Shown one piece after another: positions 4,115-26,655 of a stretch of DNA of 43,652 nucleotides (position 1 is its first letter; each line of letters begins with the position of its first letter). The translations under genes and the position numbers were made by a program. Origin of the DNA: a virus (Duplodnaviria > Heunggongvirae > Uroviricota > Caudoviricetes); IMG/VR virus record IMGVR_UViG_2617270938_000005, positions 1 through 43,652 of that record, one strand, 5' to 3'. The notes under the pieces were generated by a model that saw nothing but the letters and a program-made list of their open reading frames with translations, had not been told where the DNA came from and ran no database searches.

Positions 4115-4887
4115 TAAAATCTCTCTCCCCATGACCCGCGGTCGAAGCCAGCGATATAGTCATTTTCGATATCGAAGCCAAAAAACTGATAACCATCACT
4201 GACGGTCTCTATTTCACGGACACGAACCCCTGCGGCTTTAACCGTCATATAACCGTTCCGAATCGCCCACCATAGCTCGCTGTTAACATGGTCAATCGGG
4301 TTAATGTCATAGCGCGAAGGCACGTAACCTGCCGGTAATGCGATAAAGGGGCCTTTATTGACGGCGCTATCCAGAATTAACCGGTCTATTTCACTTAGGG
4401 CTACCGATGGGTCACCGAGTATCCAGATGGAAATCGACATATCCTGGTTGTCGACAATAGCCATGCGGATCCCGGACCCGGCAAGGGCGGCATCAAGAAT
4501 TGAAGGCAGCGAATCGTTCTGACCATCCCAGTTGTTTATTGCCACTTTCACCTTCAGCATTAGCCGATATATTTCATCGCTTAGATCGATAAAACCGTCG
4601 TTTGGGTCATATGGTCCCTGCCAGACCCCCTGATCCCAGCCAACCCGTTCGGTGTCCCACGAAAAATAAATCCCGGTTACCGGTGTTGCCACGCGACGGG
4701 AACGACCAACCCATTCGCCTACAACGTCAAGCTGCACGCCAATGGCGGTATCAATATCAAAATCGGGTATTAGCCGTGACATTGCATCGGAAACATCGCT
4801 CAGTGGCCTGGTGGACAGGTCAACGTGTGCAAAGAACTTTGGTTTACCGGCGTGGTAGTTTGTTATGCGGTCAGTGTATCTGCTCAT
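4114..4887 (-). CDS. tail/baseplate protein (gpI-like)
   Basis: 257-aa ORF coupled downstream of baseplate J-like gene. Confidence 0.45.
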   Translation of the reverse strand: MSRYTDRITNYHAGKPKFFAHVDLSTRPLSDVSDAMSRLIPDFDIDTAIGVQLDVVGEWVGRSRRVATPVTGIYFSWDTERVGWDQGVWQGPYDPNDGFIDLSDEIYRLMLKVKVAINNWDGQNDSLPSILDAALAGSGIRMAIVDNQDMSISIWILGDPSVALSEIDRLILDSAVNKGPFIALPAGYVPSRYDINPIDHVNSELWWAIRNGYMTVKAAGVRVREIETVSDGYQFFGFDIENDYIAGFDRGSWGERF

Positions 4888-6080
4888 GAGACCACCAGAT
4901 TAATATTGCTGACGGCGCAGGATGCTGACTGGTCAAAGGCAATATCCACGTTTGCCGCGGCTACGCCACCGGCAGACGTCCCGATCAGCAACTCGGTAAT
5001 GTCGTAATACCTGGCATTACCACCACTGACAACACCAAGGTTAGCCGGTGAGTAAACGCGACTGAGAAGAACGCTGGCGCCGATTGCCAGTGAGTTAATG
5101 TAGGCAGATACAGCCGCCTTTATCTCTTCGCCAACCTGGGATGTGTAGCCCGTAAGAGGTTCGATAGTGATTTTGACGTAAATGGGTACATCGACCGGCC
5201 TTGAAAAACCTACCGGGTGAGGGTTTCCGTACTTATCAGGCACAACAATCACCGTACTACCGTAGGGTGTTACGCCCTGCCCTTTCACACCACGAATGCT
5301 GTTTGCAATGACCGTCGCATCACCACCTTCTACAATGGCGGCGATTGAGTGCGGAGGCAGGCCATTTGCATCAGTGGTATCTGTATCGTTCTCATACAGC
5401 TTGTGTCGCGTTACGCCGCTGATATTTGCTATCGCGCCATCTACCGCCTCAAACGGCGTCAGAGACGGTAAAGCAACGCTCTGTGATTGCCGGACACGCA
5501 ATTCAGCATTTGTTTCGGCAGCAACGCCTACCGTAGCCGCTTGCGGGTTAGTTACTGATACCCAACCACGTGTCGGGGTGTTTATCTTATTGACTGCCCC
5601 GGCAGGGGCCGCCACAGCGCCAGCAACAGAACACGTCGCTGTAGCAATAACCGTCCCATCAATACCAATTGTCACCTGAGCAGGAAGATTCCAGATGATG
5701 CCGTTGGCATCTTTCACAGAGCCGTTTGTGATTAACGTTCCGGCCTCACCTTCGATCAGCTCATCGACCGTAGAATTTGTCGCAGCCCGGCGAGCGATGC
5801 CGTTAATTTTGACGTTACTGGTTAATGCATCGTCCAGCGCCGTCGACGGAGAAAATGACCGGTAAACAGAAATGGCCGTGTTGTTGGCATCATGAATGGC
5901 CAGAGCCACCAGAGCGACCATCTGGCCGTCTTTGCTGTCCGGGTCGAGATAGGCATCACTGCCATAAATCTGCTGAAAATAGCTAATCAGGGTGCTGAGT
6001 ATCGTCTGATAATCAGGCGCACTTATCCCCTCAGCGGTTACCGTTGCCGATAAGCCGAGTGTGTCGAGGTCCAGAGCCAT
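4884..6080 (-). CDS. baseplate J-like protein
   Basis: 398-aa ORF in baseplate position; size and position as in Mu/P2-type baseplates. Confidence 0.55.
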   Translation of the reverse strand: MALDLDTLGLSATVTAEGISAPDYQTILSTLISYFQQIYGSDAYLDPDSKDGQMVALVALAIHDANNTAISVYRSFSPSTALDDALTSNVKINGIARRAATNSTVDELIEGEAGTLITNGSVKDANGIIWNLPAQVTIGIDGTVIATATCSVAGAVAAPAGAVNKINTPTRGWVSVTNPQAATVGVAAETNAELRVRQSQSVALPSLTPFEAVDGAIANISGVTRHKLYENDTDTTDANGLPPHSIAAIVEGGDATVIANSIRGVKGQGVTPYGSTVIVVPDKYGNPHPVGFSRPVDVPIYVKITIEPLTGYTSQVGEEIKAAVSAYINSLAIGASVLLSRVYSPANLGVVSGGNARYYDITELLIGTSAGGVAAANVDIAFDQSASCAVSNINLVVS

Positions 6081-6436
6081 TACGCCTCCGAAGTTACTGT
6101 GGTTGTCCCGTAGATGGTTTCCACCGTTGCTGTGAACGTTACACGGCGCGTGGTACCGTCAACGGTGGTGTTAAATGCAGTGATTGAGCTAACCCCCTGC
6201 GTTTCTAGGATCCGCTTACGGATAGCGAGGTTGTAGGTATCCGGCCTTTGCTTACCCAGAACGGACTGAATCCATGGCGTACCTTCTGTGGTGTCCAGAA
6301 ACCACTGACCGTACCAGAGCAGGAAGCGCGTTTTAATGGCCTGCGCTACAGCCTCGGGTGAGTTAACCAGCCAGGTATCATCGCCCTGACCGAAGGTGTA
6401 ATCCCCATCGTCATCTTCTCGACGGTATCGCATATC
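6080..6436 (-). CDS. baseplate protein (gpW/gp25-like)
   Basis: Small ORF between V-like and J-like genes; start taken at internal Met abutting upstream gene. Confidence 0.4.
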   Translation of the reverse strand, partial: DMRYRREDDDGDYTFGQGDDTWLVNSPEAVAQAIKTRFLLWYGQWFLDTTEGTPWIQSVLGKQRPDTYNLAIRKRILETQGVSSITAFNTTVDGTTRRVTFTATVETIYGTTTVTSEA

Positions 6437-7088
6437 ATCCTCCGAGTGGTGCTGTACTGCTGCCACCAGGCTCAACGCCACCATGCGTATGCTTATCAAC
6501 GATTGAGCCATCCACCAGTTGCAGGCGGCCGTCCGAGAGAATTTTAAGCCCGTTCAGGTTAAAACCTCCCGGCGCCGTGCCGTTGATAGCTCCACTGGCA
6601 GGATTAAGGCTCAACTTTGTTTCCCCGTCATCACTGCGCAGCTCTACCGCACTGGTGCTGATACCGCCGATTTTCTTCGCCTGCGACTGCGGGCCGACAA
6701 TGCAGAAGGCATCGGATAAATCATGCATGCGCTCGTCTACTGGCTCCTGAATACCTCCACTTTGCCACCAGAAATCAATACAGCGGTCTGCAAAGATAAC
6801 AAGGCATTCATCACCAGGCTTAACAGGAAAAGTCAGCGTACAGCCTCCGCCACGAGGGAAAACGACAGGAACGTCCACCAGCAGTGGGAGGTTTACCGAT
6901 ACCTGGGTGCCGGATTCGTCCTTCTCTGCGCCTTTAATGGCTGGCTGAACAACAGCGGTGACAGCATCCGGATCAAACGACTGGACGATGCCGGGCATAG
7001 AAACACGCAGCGCCGACATGACAGAGCCAGCAAGTCTTACATCGGCCTGTTCTTTGTTACCAAGTTGAGCGCTTAAAGAAACTGGCAT
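6435..7088 (-). CDS. baseplate assembly protein V-like (spike)
   Basis: 217-aa ORF, position and Gly-rich C-terminus consistent with gpV-type spike. Confidence 0.45.
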   Translation of the reverse strand: MPVSLSAQLGNKEQADVRLAGSVMSALRVSMPGIVQSFDPDAVTAVVQPAIKGAEKDESGTQVSVNLPLLVDVPVVFPRGGGCTLTFPVKPGDECLVIFADRCIDFWWQSGGIQEPVDERMHDLSDAFCIVGPQSQAKKIGGISTSAVELRSDDGETKLSLNPASGAINGTAPGGFNLNGLKILSDGRLQLVDGSIVDKHTHGGVEPGGSSTAPLGG

Positions 7089-7104
7089 TCATATGTCTCC
7101 AGAA

Positions 7105-7130
7105 AGTAAAAAACCCAGCCGAAGCTGGGT
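7105..7130 (-). terminator. rho-independent terminator after ant
   Basis: Hairpin ACCCAGC-CGAA-GCTGGGT with T-run on minus strand (plus A-run 7108-7113). Confidence 0.6.
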
Positions 7131-7148
7131 TGTCGCGTTGGTTATCTG

Positions 7149-8063
7149 TCAGTAGTTATGTACTGAAGGAGGTAATTCTTTATTCTTAAGTCTCATCCAT
7201 GCGGAAAGATTCGCTGGTCCGTCTGGCTCATTGATATCAACATCTCGTGTGTGATTGATTAAAACGTCTCTCGCCATTCCGATAACATACGAGAATTCAT
7301 GACCGTAGTCGTAGCATCTGCCGGAATAGTTCGATTGAATTTGTTTTAATGCCGGATACAGTTCGCGGAATAATGCCTGTGAACGGTTGGCATAATCCCA
7401 TAACCATACAAGGCTGTTTGCTTCTTTTGCAGAAAACTCGTTTGCTTTCTTCTCTTGTTTGCCAATGAACTCACCTTCAAGTGGAACTCGAGCTGCAAGT
7501 GACAGTGCTTCTGTAAACTGCTCCTCACTGATTTCTTTGTATGAACATCCAAAATGGGATTTCAGTGACGACCACATGGTGATCATCGCCTTCGCCTGTT
7601 TTTCTTTTGGCAGAGACTGACCGCGACTCATGACGAGTTGTTTAATAGCTTCCTGCTGTTCAGTGGTGATTTTACCAGGCAACGCCTTTTTAGCTTTCGG
7701 TGTATTTCCGTAAGACCCCGTTTTACGAATGGATGGCAAAACTTCAGCTGTTACCCATTTGCGGAATTTGTGCGGGACTGAACCTTTATTGACGGCATCA
7801 CGGCAGCGCAGAACCAATGTATACATACCTGATTCGCTCACAATGCTTAAATTCTGCTCACCACCAAGGGTGTAACTTAAAGTTACTCCCTTCTCATCGT
7901 CATCAAGTGCAGTAAGCGCCTTGCGTGAGTTAGTCAGGGCTAAAGCATCACAAACATCTTTTGCTACAAACCACGGCTCACCGCACTTGTTGATGACGCG
8001 GATTTCACTGTCGCCGAATTTGAAGATGGTGAAATCGTTTTGTGCCTTTGCTATACTTTTCAT
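7149..8063 (-). CDS. ant: antirepressor (Bro-N domain)
   Basis: N-terminal [16 protein letters not shown]...[11 protein letters not shown] matches Bro-N/antirepressor N-domain (cf. P22 Ant). Confidence 0.75.
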
Positions 8064-8095
8064 GTCAATATTTCCCGATCAGATTTGTTGATGTA

Positions 8096-8136
8096 GAAGC
8101 CTCGCCAGTTCCCGCTGTCGGGGCTTCGTTATTTTT
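8096..8136 (+). terminator. hairpin plus T-run in arc-ant spacer (possible sar-like antisense RNA terminator)
   Basis: GAAGCC...CCCG-CTGT-CGGG...GGCTTC hairpin followed by GTTATTTTT on plus strand; no plus-strand gene upstream. Confidence 0.35.
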
Positions 8137-8296
8137 AGAGAGCATTCCGCATTTTCTCCCGGTACTTCAACCACCAAGCTAATCCTTGAACCAACACTGA
8201 GTTTTCTGACATTCCCTCTTCCTCTGCAATGCGCTTAACTTCTTCCTTAAAGCGGTACGGGTAGCGAAGAGTTGTCTTTACTTCATTCTTTTCCAT
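8135..8296 (-). CDS. arc: Arc-like ribbon-helix-helix regulator
   Basis: 53-aa ORF (same length as P22 Arc) with AAGGAG RBS, immediately upstream of ant, divergent from mnt-like gene. Confidence 0.5.
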   Translation of the reverse strand: MEKNEVKTTLRYPYRFKEEVKRIAEEEGMSENSVLVQGLAWWLKYREKMRNAL

Positions 8297-8318
8297 GCTG
8301 TCTCCTTATTTCATAATG

Positions 8319-8333
8319 AAGGCAAATTGCCTT
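8319..8333. promoter_or_regulatory. 15-bp palindromic operator AAGGCAA-A-TTGCCTT in divergent arc/mnt promoter region
   Basis: Perfect inverted repeat between TTGACT (-35, minus strand) and the arc start. Confidence 0.5.
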
Positions 8334-8352
8334 TAGAGTCAATTTACCATGA

Positions 8353-8382
8353 TTGCACATGAAGTCAAGTTGCCTCTACAAT
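8353..8382 (+). promoter_or_regulatory. candidate sigma70 promoter for mnt-like gene
   Basis: TTGCAC - 18 nt - TACAAT, about 20 nt upstream of RBS GAGGTGA and ATG 8404. Confidence 0.45.
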
Positions 8383-8403
8383 GATTTTTATTTGAGGTGA
8401 GTT

Positions 8404-8727
8404 ATGTCAGAAAAATTTCCCAGCCAAATGCAAGACAAGTTCACCGTGAGGTTTCCTGACGGATTGCGCGATGCTATAGCTGAACGAGCTAAACGTAATG
8501 GCAGATCAATGAACTCAGAGATTGTGCAGATACTGGAAGATGCCTTGAATGCAGAAAATACTCTTGGGGAAATAGCAGATAAAATTAACAGCGTCTCGGT
8601 TCCGCTAAATGTTGATGCGCTAGTTCAACTTCAAGCCCAGGTTATCGCCATGCAAAAAGAAATACAGGAAAAGTTCAGAGAGCAGAACGAAAAGTTGAGA
8701 GAACTGCTAAACAAAAAACCCACCTGA
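8404..8727 (+). CDS. mnt: Mnt-like repressor (RHH)
   Basis: RNGRSMNSEIVQILEDAL closely matches P22 Mnt ANGRSMNSELLQIVQDAL. Confidence 0.7.
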   Translation: MSEKFPSQMQDKFTVRFPDGLRDAIAERAKRNGRSMNSEIVQILEDALNAENTLGEIADKINSVSVPLNVDALVQLQAQVIAMQKEIQEKFREQNEKLRELLNKKPT

Positions 8728-8734
8728 CGGTGGG
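8711..8734 (-). terminator. rho-independent terminator (mainly minus strand)
   Basis: CCCACC-TGAC-GGTGGG hairpin with T-run on minus strand (plus A-run 8713-8718), after the 8752 gene stop and overlapping mnt stop. Confidence 0.6.
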
Positions 8735-8751
8735 TTACGGAGAGGGCAAGA

Positions 8752-9087
8752 TCATTTAACCTTTCGGCAATCGTACGTCCAAAATTCCCGAGGCTCGTCC
8801 ATATTTTTGCGGATAACTTCAACGTTGAGGATCGCTTTTTTGTTTCGTTTGATGTAGTCCATACCTAACCAACGTCCAGTATTAGGATCAGGTAACATCC
8901 ATTGCATCATGACGTTATCGAAATCGTCTTTTTGTTTCAAAAAGGTCATTTTTTGTGTTTCTGGCTTTTGACCATTGATGTGCATGAGGCCATCATTGCC
9001 AGCATCAAAGCGGAATGGTCCGCACTGCGTTGCCGCCGAAACGGTTAACGGCAGGGCCAAGAATAAACAAAAAAATACTTTTTTCAC
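8752..9087 (-). CDS. small secreted protein (signal peptide), moron-like
   Basis: MKKVFFCLFLALPLTVSA-A signal peptide with AXA cleavage site; ATGA start/stop overlap with upstream tail gene. Confidence 0.5.
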   Translation of the reverse strand: MKKVFFCLFLALPLTVSAATQCGPFRFDAGNDGLMHINGQKPETQKMTFLKQKDDFDNVMMQWMLPDPNTGRWLGMDYIKRNKKAILNVEVIRKNMDEPREFWTYDCRKVK

Positions 9088-10121
9088 TCTACATCTCCGA
9101 CTTTGTCCAAAGTGCCTTTTGCCAATAGTTCTTTGCCACCTTTAGCCAGGCAAAGCAGGTCCATATACCACGCCTGCCCGCGAGTATCGCCAGTATAGTC
9201 AATGCTGCCGACAATGTAATCACCATCGGTATTGATTGCCGCCAGCTGCGACCCGGGAAGCCCATCGACATAGATGTTACCGTCTGTGGTACTTTCGCCT
9301 AAGATACCTGGTGACTGGCCAACCTGGTCATTACCGAGAGCCTGACGATATACAGAGGCCTGATCCAGCCTGATAAGCCCACCAAGCTTAATATTCGGGT
9401 TTATCAGACAGCGCACATTTACCCCGGCGCCCATCGTCTGCTGAGGCATACCGATCAGGCCCGTATTGGCGTTCAGTACAATCGCTTCCTGTATGTACTT
9501 ATCATCAGGAACAATATGCACCTGGTTGTTTTCGTACCACCAATTAGCCTTACATTGCCCTGCAAGGCTGTACATCAGGCGTCCAGTGTTCTGATAAATA
9601 GTGCGGCCGCGGGGGAATACAGTTGGACCAAAATCCGGCCTGCTTCCCTCTGTAATGCCATAAGGGCTAAGGGACTGCATACCCAAATCAAACAGGTCAG
9701 CATGCTTCCAGCCTGCCGATACTGTCGTTTTCACGCTGGCGTTGAGATGCCCCTCCCAGCCATCAATACACTGGATGAGCACCCAACTATCGGTGACGTT
9801 ATCTTTTCCGGTAACGGTAAAGCGAATATCACCGTTAAAGATGATCCCCACATTTTTATCAGGATAGTTACCACTGCTGTCTGCTGTGCCGTTATACCCG
9901 GCAATAGCCCTTACACGAGTAAACTCTTTACCCATGATCCGGTTTTGTGTCTCCGGCGACAGATTGTAGATTTTGAAGTTACCCACGAATCCGTTAAAGA
10001 TAGTCGCGGGCATCTTCTGGATATTAAACGTCACCTTAAAATCCGACAGCGAAACACCATCACCCTTGTCGTCAATAAGCTGCAGCTCAAAGTGCCGCAT
10101 CCAGTTCTGAGACATAATCAC
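9084..10121 (-). CDS. tail/baseplate hub protein (putative)
   Basis: 345-aa ORF in baseplate position downstream of tape measure region. Confidence 0.4.
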   Translation of the reverse strand: MIMSQNWMRHFELQLIDDKGDGVSLSDFKVTFNIQKMPATIFNGFVGNFKIYNLSPETQNRIMGKEFTRVRAIAGYNGTADSSGNYPDKNVGIIFNGDIRFTVTGKDNVTDSWVLIQCIDGWEGHLNASVKTTVSAGWKHADLFDLGMQSLSPYGITEGSRPDFGPTVFPRGRTIYQNTGRLMYSLAGQCKANWWYENNQVHIVPDDKYIQEAIVLNANTGLIGMPQQTMGAGVNVRCLINPNIKLGGLIRLDQASVYRQALGNDQVGQSPGILGESTTDGNIYVDGLPGSQLAAINTDGDYIVGSIDYTGDTRGQAWYMDLLCLAKGGKELLAKGTLDKVGDVE

Positions 10122-14079: not shown

Positions 14080-15225
14080 TTATCGCACCACATTGATCTG
14101 CACGTCGGCATAGTGAATGGCACCCGCCAGTTTGATCGCCGCCTGAATCACCGGCGACTTACGCGCTTCCCTGTCGGACTGCGCCTGGTTTTCTACTGAA
14201 TCGGCGTGGACGTAGTAACCCTTGGTCAGTGTGTCACCTGATTCAATCTGGCCGATCGGGCCGCCATTCCATACACCCGGAGCCACCAGGCCGTTATTAA
14301 CCGCCTGATCCAGTGAGGCTTCGACGTTGGTCATTAACCGGGTTACGCCTGCGTCGGTCTGCGGGATTTTGGTGGCCGAGGTGTAAAGCAGGTTATAGAG
14401 ATTGGTCTGAACGTAGTTCTGCAACCAGTCGAGCCCGTGGCGCTCGTCGAAGAAGTCACCGTTCGCCATGACACCCTGTTGCAGGATCGCCGTGTCGTTG
14501 GCGTAGTACACGAATACATTGCAGTTTTTTGCATCAAGTGCCGATGCCTGGCTGACTGTCAGTGTTTCATACCCGACACCCGGCTCCTGCTTAAACTTGA
14601 GCGTAATCGCGGTATTACTGCCATTGAAATTAACCGTGAATGCCCGGCCAAATGCAGATAACGCAGCGTATTTATTACCCGATGAATACTGAATAAAACT
14701 GCGTGAATATCCGGCGGTTTTCAGTTTTGATGCCAAATCATCGCTGGATGCAGTCTGCAGGCATTTCTCATCGCTTGTCGTAATCGCCAGAATACGGCTT
14801 ACAGAAGAGGATTCGATCGCCGCAGCCACTTTCAGCCAGTCTGCATCCGGAATATCTTCATCGTCTGCAATCCCCAGTCCATACCATGAAGTATAATCGA
14901 GCATGGCATTCACAGCCTGCTCCAGCGTCTCAGGCGTGGCCTGTTCGCTGTCTCCCTTCGTTTTCACCCAACGACCAACAAAAACCTCCTGAGGTTTCGG
15001 TGATTGTGAGAAAAACACCTGCGCAGCCTTATATTCTGGTGATTCCACGCCAAAATCTTTTCCAATATCTTCCGCGGCAGAATAACGGCGAATGCGCTCA
15101 CTTACCGGAATGATTGTGGACGGGCCGAGAATGAGTAATGCACCAAAATTTCGCCCTGATGCTGCACGCGGCGACATGATCACATCAACATTAACAACGT
15201 TTGATACAGGCAAGCCCTGTGCCAT
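14080..15225 (-). CDS. tail sheath protein (putative)
   Basis: 381-aa ORF immediately upstream of tube gene. Confidence 0.5.
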
Positions 15226-26499: not shown

Positions 26500-26575
26500 T
26501 GGTGCTGTTTAACGGACTTGAACCGCTACCCATTCGCTTACAAGGCGACCGCTCTACCATTGGAGCTAAAACAGC
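26500..26575 (-). tRNA. tRNA, anticodon UGU (Thr)
   Basis: Manual cloverleaf: acceptor GCTGTTT/AAACAGC, D-stem GCTC/GAGC with GG, anticodon loop CTTGTAA, T-loop TTCAAGT, encoded ACCA 3' end. Confidence 0.65.
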
Positions 26576-26580
26576 ATGTT

Positions 26581-26655
26581 TGGCGGGACAGCGTGGACTC
26601 GAACCACGATAAGAAGGTTAACAGCCTTCCGTAATCACCTTTATACGACTGACCC
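26581..26655 (-). tRNA. tRNA-like, anticodon GUU (Asn), with stem mismatches
   Basis: Anticodon arm GAAGG-CTGTTAA-CCTTC, T-arm CGTGG-TTCGAGT-CCACG, CCA end; one T-T mismatch each in acceptor and D stems. Confidence 0.5.

Follow-up and report, generated by a model that had tools for sequence, protein, structure and literature searches.

A probable sar-type antisense RNA gene in the arc-ant spacer of a myovirus-tailed lambdoid prophage of E. coli

Our analysis of a 43,652-nt stretch of viral DNA (the window, by which we mean the whole stretch at its full length) indicates that positions 8064-8136 on the plus strand very probably form a gene whose product, a cis-encoded antisense RNA of ~70 nt, is a homologue of sar from Salmonella phage P22. 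P22 sar is a well-studied antisense RNA that blocks translation of the antirepressor Ant. As judged from the sequences, we establish here homology to sar, a conserved promoter, a conserved and co-varying RNA structure, and selection acting on the plus strand. The element is a divergent form of a known family and involves no new mechanism. The features on which the argument rests are as follows:

7149-8063, minus strand: ant, an antirepressor gene of 304 aa (Bro-N and P22_AR_C domains by Pfam; PHROG "anti-repressor Ant")
8029-8057, plus strand: Psar-like promoter (promoter scan; column alignment with P22 Psar)
8064-8136, plus strand: predicted sar-like antisense RNA of ~68-73 nt (Rfam sar, covariance models R1 and R2, fold, P22 geometry)
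8064-8092, plus strand: hairpin I, with a 7-bp stem pairing 8064-8070 with 8086-8092 (MFE fold)
8096-8136, plus strand: hairpin II, a predicted intrinsic terminator in which 8096-8109 pairs with 8114-8127 around a UCCC loop, followed by GUUAUUUUU
8135-8296, minus strand: arc-like gene for a ribbon-helix-helix repressor of 53 aa (PHROG 582 Arc-like repressor, E = 3.8e-10)
8311-8384, no strand assigned: candidate divergent control region (promoter scan, inverted repeats, analogy with the P22 annotation)
8404-8727, plus strand: mnt-like gene for an Arc-family repressor of 107 aa (Pfam Arc, E = 1.5e-18; PHROGs Arc-like regulators)

An earlier note on this DNA had pointed to a hairpin at 8096-8127 in the arc-ant spacer followed by a U-tract on the plus strand, and inspection of the sequence bears this out. 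The 5' arm GAAGCCTCGCCAGT (8096-8109) and the 3' arm GCTGTCGGGGCTTC (8114-8127) of hairpin II enclose the loop TCCC (8110-8113), and 13 of the 14 stem positions are paired, the remaining one being a C.U mismatch. Directly 3' of the hairpin, the plus-strand tail GTTATTTTT (8128-8136) overlaps by 2 nt the stop codon of the arc-like gene (TAA on the minus strand, 8135-8137). At the other end of the spacer, 8061-8063 reads CAT, the complement of the ant start codon. The nearest ORFs upstream of the hairpin all lie on the minus strand, so no plus-strand gene feeds the terminator, and its description as an orphan stands. A generic terminator scan of the region returned 6 sites against 3.9 +/- 2.0 expected, which is insignificant alone, and we did not rely on it as evidence.

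The predicted RNA is encoded in the arc-ant spacer (8064-8136, plus strand), antisense to the ant ribosome-binding site. Its +1 (G8064) was placed by homology with P22 sar and its 3' end in the U-tract at 8129-8136, giving an RNA with a predicted length of ~68-73 nt and two stem-loops, the second of which is an intrinsic terminator. The 5' end adjoins the ant start codon without including it, and the ant ribosome-binding site and leader just 5' of the AUG are fully complementary to the RNA. Read from the sequence, the apical UUUCCC of hairpin I (8071-8076) is complementary to the ant Shine-Dalgarno sequence GGGAAA, located 9 nt before the AUG.

The earlier note had seen no convincing -10/-35 for such an RNA, a statement that our promoter prediction on the plus strand in the ant 5' end overturns. 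The scan identified a -35 hexamer GTGAAA at 8029-8034 and, at 8049-8057, the extended -10 TGcTATACT, with a spacer of 17 nt. This predicted promoter falls within codons 2-12 of ant and is oriented against both ant and Pant. The sequence TGNTATACT is unique in the 43.6-kb window, its sole occurrence being this site, and the promoter and the annotated Psar of P22 (NC_002371 15097-15125, GTGTTA-17-TATACT) occupy matching alignment columns. The -35 hexamer of the window is weak (3/6), so promoter activity would depend on the extended -10. Across the family, a -35-like nTGnnA with at least 3/6 matches is present in 56 of 60 upstream regions, compared with ~48% of shuffles, and the phage or prophage sequence RM10410 has a better -35 (TTGATA, 17-nt spacer).

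The pattern that we used to search for family members (see below) forced part of the -10, and we added two pattern-independent checks of promoter conservation. Copies found by the structure model alone still carry an extended -10 (TGcTAAAAT, TGcTACAAT or TGcTATACT), which, in copies whose 5' end the model places well, precedes the RNA start by ~6 nt and stands immediately ahead of the ATG complement. The extended -10 is also kept beside unrelated antirepressor genes, in RM10410 and PhiR5_1; the antirepressor DNA of RM10410 is unrelated to that of the window, yet identity to the window starts exactly at TTGCTATACT. Coding constraint on the Ant N-terminus or recent shared ancestry could be the source of part of this conservation.

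In a search with the Rfam sar model (RF00262), 8065-8131 on the plus strand matched over the full model length with 28.5 bits (E = 0.005), short of the 43-bit gathering score, and a search at gathering gives no match in the window. The gathering score is an operational cut-off for a narrow seed, and of 15 representative family variants only 4 exceed it; a search at gathering misses the other 11 as well as the window. Loci named beside this shortfall are window 8064-8137, L010, L012, L035, L003, L004, L002, L063, L134, L136, L124 and L126. Most true relatives of sar lie outside the curated family. Two further Rfam hits were rejected: a match to ctRNA_pGA1 (23.2 bits, E = 0.098; gathering, 45 bits) covers the terminator hairpin only, and one to mir-1824 (E = 0.23) is weak and attributable to chance.

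Covariance models built from relatives of the element gave far higher scores. Model R1 matches 8064-8137 at 83.3 bits. R2 is a leave-out model of 25 relatives, P22 and Rfam-accepted members among them and none with the window's variant; blind to the query in this way, it still matches 8064-8137 on the plus strand at 68.8 bits (E ~4e-13). This is its only strong match in the window, the sole other one reaching 19 bits at this locus on the minus strand. Hairpin I is identical at 25 of 29 positions to that of locus L020, which scores 71.6 bits with the Rfam model.

A five-way alignment contained 39 invariant columns, including TTGCTA.A.T..TCATGT and GAAGCC...GGGG.TT, and a search pattern derived from these columns retrieved ~140 loci from viral and genome collections. 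The variants come from Enterobacterales phages and prophages. Among the named sources are Salmonella phage P22 and phages of E. coli, Klebsiella and Edwardsiella, as well as Xenorhabdus, Hafnia, Erwinia, Tatumella, Pluralibacter, Citrobacter, Mangrovibacter and Entomohabitans genomes. Six loci from non-enterobacterial MAGs (L127, L133, L140, L143, L144 and L145) have neither the fold nor a model match and were set aside as chance matches to the pattern. In Xenorhabdus (loci L129, L131, L136, L137 and L138), several loci contain a cluster of two or three sar-like elements spaced within a few kb, which suggests that antirepressor modules occur there in tandem, each paired with an antisense RNA of its own.

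The 73-nt plus-strand RNA folds with an MFE of -26.4 kcal/mol, compared with -13.4 +/- 2.6 kcal/mol for shuffled sequences (z = -4.9; none of 200 shuffles equals it). We examined covariation in a structure-aware, covariance-model alignment of 93 family members. It replaced an alignment of 55 variants by MAFFT and RNAalifold, which recovered the terminator stem in part and mis-registered stem I because loop lengths differ. In the structure-aware alignment, 95.2% of stem cells pair, compared with 29-46% when partners are slid, and changes on both sides of a pair occur in 14 of 21 pairs (172 cells); none of 500 shuffles reaches the observed values, although the counts are somewhat inflated because a model-fitted alignment of related sequences was used. 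All seven pairs of hairpin I show double-sided changes across the family, and hairpin II has compensatory changes in 7 of its 14 pairs, with 96.9% of its cells paired.

Comparison of the relatives revealed mosaic junctions on both sides of the element and within it. In RM10410, sar is identical and arc 91% identical but ant is unrelated, with the breakpoint at the -10, and 2013C-4991 has the same ant and sar with a different arc, with the breakpoint just after the terminator stem. Kapi1 combines a window-like hairpin I with a P22-like hairpin II, placing the breakpoint inside the element. The corresponding window positions are ~8047, ~8127-8136 and within 8064-8095 (loci L147, L148 and L149). 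Across the junctions where the adjoining ant or arc has been exchanged, the window's sar variant is 97-100% conserved.

Whole-antirepressor single-linkage clustering merged all of these proteins through their mosaic domains, and we then clustered the N-terminal and C-terminal parts apart from each other. The antirepressors that the cassette faces have four different N-terminal Pfam domains (P22_AR_N, Bro-N, ORF6N and KilA-N), and all of these proteins begin M-x-S/I/N-I/V/L-A (L001, L002, L004, L021, L081 and L147). This shared start arises because ant codons 2-5 spell the Psar -10 (TGnTAnAnT; window 8049-8063). It seems that either the promoter dictates the first residues of Ant or domain swaps occur right after codon 5. 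At three loci, the annotated antirepressor CDS runs upstream through sar and overlaps arc (Kapi1, L149 786-1730; GF-2, L002 870-1745; PhiR5_1, L004 848-1597). The sar-anchored ATG lies ~66-80 nt further in, so the annotated start codons of these three genes are probably mis-called.

The earlier note had named one reading that would undo its proposal, namely that the hairpin acts only as an attenuator on the minus-strand arc-ant mRNA. We extend this reading to a processing site or stabilizer in that mRNA, with no plus-strand RNA made. The hairpin is indeed also transcribed within that mRNA, where a weaker version of it can form. The minus-strand leader of the window nevertheless folds at the level of shuffled sequences (z = -0.05), and the sequence 3' of the hairpin on that strand (CUACAUCAACAAAUC) contains no U-run. 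We compared the two strands across 85 distinct variants (a slightly different extraction gave 96) and found a mean MFE of -29.4 kcal/mol for the plus strand and -19.8 kcal/mol for the minus strand. The plus strand folded better in 85 of 85 variants, a gap of ~10 kcal/mol in favor of the sar strand. This asymmetry arises because 374 of 1923 plus-strand pairs (~19%) are G.U and hence A.C on the mRNA strand. A conserved plus-strand promoter, moreover, points into the hairpin. Together, the covariation and the strand asymmetry argue that the RNA structure is under selection on the plus (sar) strand, and we regard action on the minus strand only as very unlikely.

A second alternative is that the locus is an inactive relic of sar, kept through recent acquisition of the module and neither expressed nor needed in a myovirus-type prophage. 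A score below the Rfam gathering threshold, a weak -35 and one mismatch in the terminator stem are what such a relic might display, but decay is hard to reconcile with 97-100% conservation across exchanged neighbors. Differences from P22 in the stems are mostly pair-preserving (U-A to A-U and G-U to G-C, for example), neither the extended -10 nor the U-tract is damaged, the U-tract being better than that of P22, and the arc, ant and mnt reading frames are uninterrupted. We give this reading only a slight chance. The junctions at the -10, after the terminator stem and inside the element, and the variety of antirepressor domains that the cassette faces, could alternatively mean that its chief role is as a recombination linker for swapping antirepressor and arc modules, with RNA function secondary. 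A pure linker needs sequence identity and not base pairing, whereas the compensatory changes and the G.U asymmetry indicate selection on an RNA. Junctions would also gather at any conserved functional segment, and the two roles are compatible; as the chief role, recombination strikes us as barely credible. A sar-like antisense RNA encoded in the arc-ant spacer, as the earlier note had tentatively proposed, is by comparison supported by the Rfam match, the alignment with P22, the R2 match, the covariation and the strand asymmetry, all of them properties of the sequence.

The genes around the predicted sar make up an immI module of the P22 type, with divergent mnt and arc-ant units, Arc-family repressors, an antirepressor, and predicted operators and promoters. 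Ant is 61% identical to P22 Ant over its C-terminal 190 aa only. The arc-like gene is the first of the arc-ant operon, and its product shares 41% identity with P22 Arc across 29 aa (E = 8e-6); a Pfam search with this protein returned no match. The mnt-like gene is divergent from arc-ant, and the interval 8311-8384 between the two is a candidate arc/mnt control region, its Pant, Pmnt and operators being assigned by analogy. Candidates for Pant lie on the minus strand at 8368-8341 or 8342-8313 and a candidate Pmnt on the plus strand at 8354-8382, and operator-like symmetry, including the near-perfect palindrome AAGGCAAATTGCCTT at 8322-8336, overlaps these candidate divergent promoters.

Besides being lambdoid (Q antiterminator, lysis cassette), the prophage has a myovirus tail and is integrated beside tRNA-Arg/intS in E. 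coli. Its immI module lies inside the minus-strand late operon, between a baseplate hub gene (9084-10121) and a spike gene (6435-7088), in a myovirus-type baseplate cluster with spike and gpJ-like genes at 4884-7088 (context 4884-10121, locus L146). Two strong minus-strand intrinsic terminators, with 8-bp GC-rich stems and a T-run, bracket the module at 8717-8736 and 7112-7131; the former overlaps the mnt 3' end, and the latter follows ant and resembles the P22 ant terminator. In E. coli LWY24, a 99%-identical prophage has no ncRNA at the position of sar in its RefSeq annotation. Between mnt and the baseplate hub gene, an ORF of 111 aa (8752-9087, minus strand) has a signal-peptide-like N-terminus (MKKVFFCLFLALPLTVSA...), matches PHROG 3443 (function unknown) and has no Pfam match; it may be a moron or exclusion gene. 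Elsewhere in the window, adjacent phage-borne tRNA-Thr(TGT) and tRNA-Asn(GTT) genes lie at 26500-26655 on the minus strand.

By analogy with P22, the one phage for which such action of the RNA is known, we envisage that the RNA is transcribed, pairs with its target and represses translation of ant. Host sigma-70 RNA polymerase would start at the extended -10 promoter (8029-8057) inside ant and run in the opposite direction to it, cross the entire arc-ant spacer, and stop at the intrinsic terminator (hairpin 8096-8127 and U-tract), with the tail lying over the arc stop codon. The RNA would fold into two hairpins, hairpin I displaying the anti-Shine-Dalgarno UUUCCC. Since it is perfectly complementary to the ant leader, the RNA is expected to pair with the arc-ant mRNA, and it may pair likewise with read-through mRNA from the late operon. 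Pairing would occlude the ant ribosome-binding site and keep antirepressor synthesis low, which would protect the prophage repressor and limit Ant during lytic growth. Because immI lies within the late operon, we infer that late read-through transcripts would also carry ant and need control by sar. Interference between Pant and Psar is known from P22; we did not use it as evidence.

With a predicted promoter, RNA and terminator, what had been an orphan terminator becomes a recognizable gene that would complete the immI switch of the prophage. Modestly new are the carrier, a myovirus-tailed lambdoid E. coli prophage, the Bro-N-type Ant as target, the mosaic junctions flanking and inside the element, and a divergent sar variant that is missed at the Rfam gathering score. 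The sar cassette stays intact while the surrounding antirepressor and arc genes are swapped, and its recognition is relevant for annotating prophage immunity regions and for predicting antirepressor cross-regulation between co-resident prophages. Psar-sar occurs across Enterobacterales (Xenorhabdus, Hafnia, Erwinia, Klebsiella and Edwardsiella), with the Psar -10 set in codons 2-5 (M-x-S-I-A) of antirepressors that have at least four unrelated N-terminal domains. We speculate, while regarding the idea as doubtful, that Psar-sar is a portable cassette far wider than the curated family, which serves as a junction for antirepressor and arc exchange, holds its -10 fixed in ant codons 2-5, and may allow silencing in trans. 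Since an identical leader occurs in unrelated antirepressor genes, sar from one prophage could silence the ant of another phage. If true, such trans-silencing of ant mRNA from co-resident or superinfecting phages would be an RNA-based layer of cross-immunity.

The predicted RNA resembles IS10 RNA-OUT, lambda OOP and plasmid ctRNAs (RF00236) in being a short, hairpin-rich cis-antisense RNA that lies opposite the 5' end of its target and ends in an intrinsic terminator. These RNAs are made constitutively and occlude ribosome-binding sites. They have no sequence homology with the window's RNA, and the ctRNA_pGA1 match reflects a common shape.

The likeness to P22 sar is far closer. A BLAST search against phages in "distant" mode missed P22, and we made the comparison through accession NC_002371, which annotates sar at 15021-15090, the sar terminator at 15021-15058 and, within ant, Psar at 15097-15125. 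There, ant starts with its ATG at 15091 and arc ends at 15022, so that in P22, too, the terminator overlaps the arc stop. Both RNAs are encoded in the arc-ant spacer, run antisense to the ribosome-binding site of ant and begin a single base away from its AUG, and both loci share the flanking order mnt, arc, ant. The -35, the extended -10, the ant start, hairpins I and II and the arc stop fall in the same alignment columns; the TGcTATACT promoter occupies the same position within ant, and the two-hairpin fold, the GAAGCC...GGGGCUUC terminator and the tail over the arc stop are common to both. P22 sar folds at -29.5 kcal/mol (z = -5.3), against -26.4 kcal/mol (z = -4.9) for the window element. 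Local pairwise identity with P22 was uninformative, the alignments being too short; judged by eye from the alignment and not calculated, the two RNAs are roughly 60-65% identical. They differ in stem I, which has 7 bp in the window and 6 in P22 with the register shifted by 1 nt, in the inner terminator stem, and in the U-tract, which is longer and better in the window. The target differs as well, the Ant N-terminus being Bro-N in the window and P22_AR_N in P22, as does the carrier, a myovirus-tailed lambdoid E. coli prophage here and a P22-like podovirus there.

Modules of the immI type have been described in other phages. In the P22-like phages epsilon34, L, ST64T and Kapi1, mnt-arc-ant forms an "ant moron" inserted in the late operon (PMC2629481), and the Edwardsiella myoviruses GF-2 and Edno5 carry an mnt-arc-ant module inside a myovirus genome (PMC6372524). 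The description of GF-2 and Edno5 covers ant, arc and mnt only and leaves sar unmentioned (PMC6372524); we found a sar homologue in GF-2 (L002 1665-1737). Compared with the immI regions of the P22-like phages, GF-2 and Edno5, the module in the window is distinguished by its position between the baseplate hub and spike genes.
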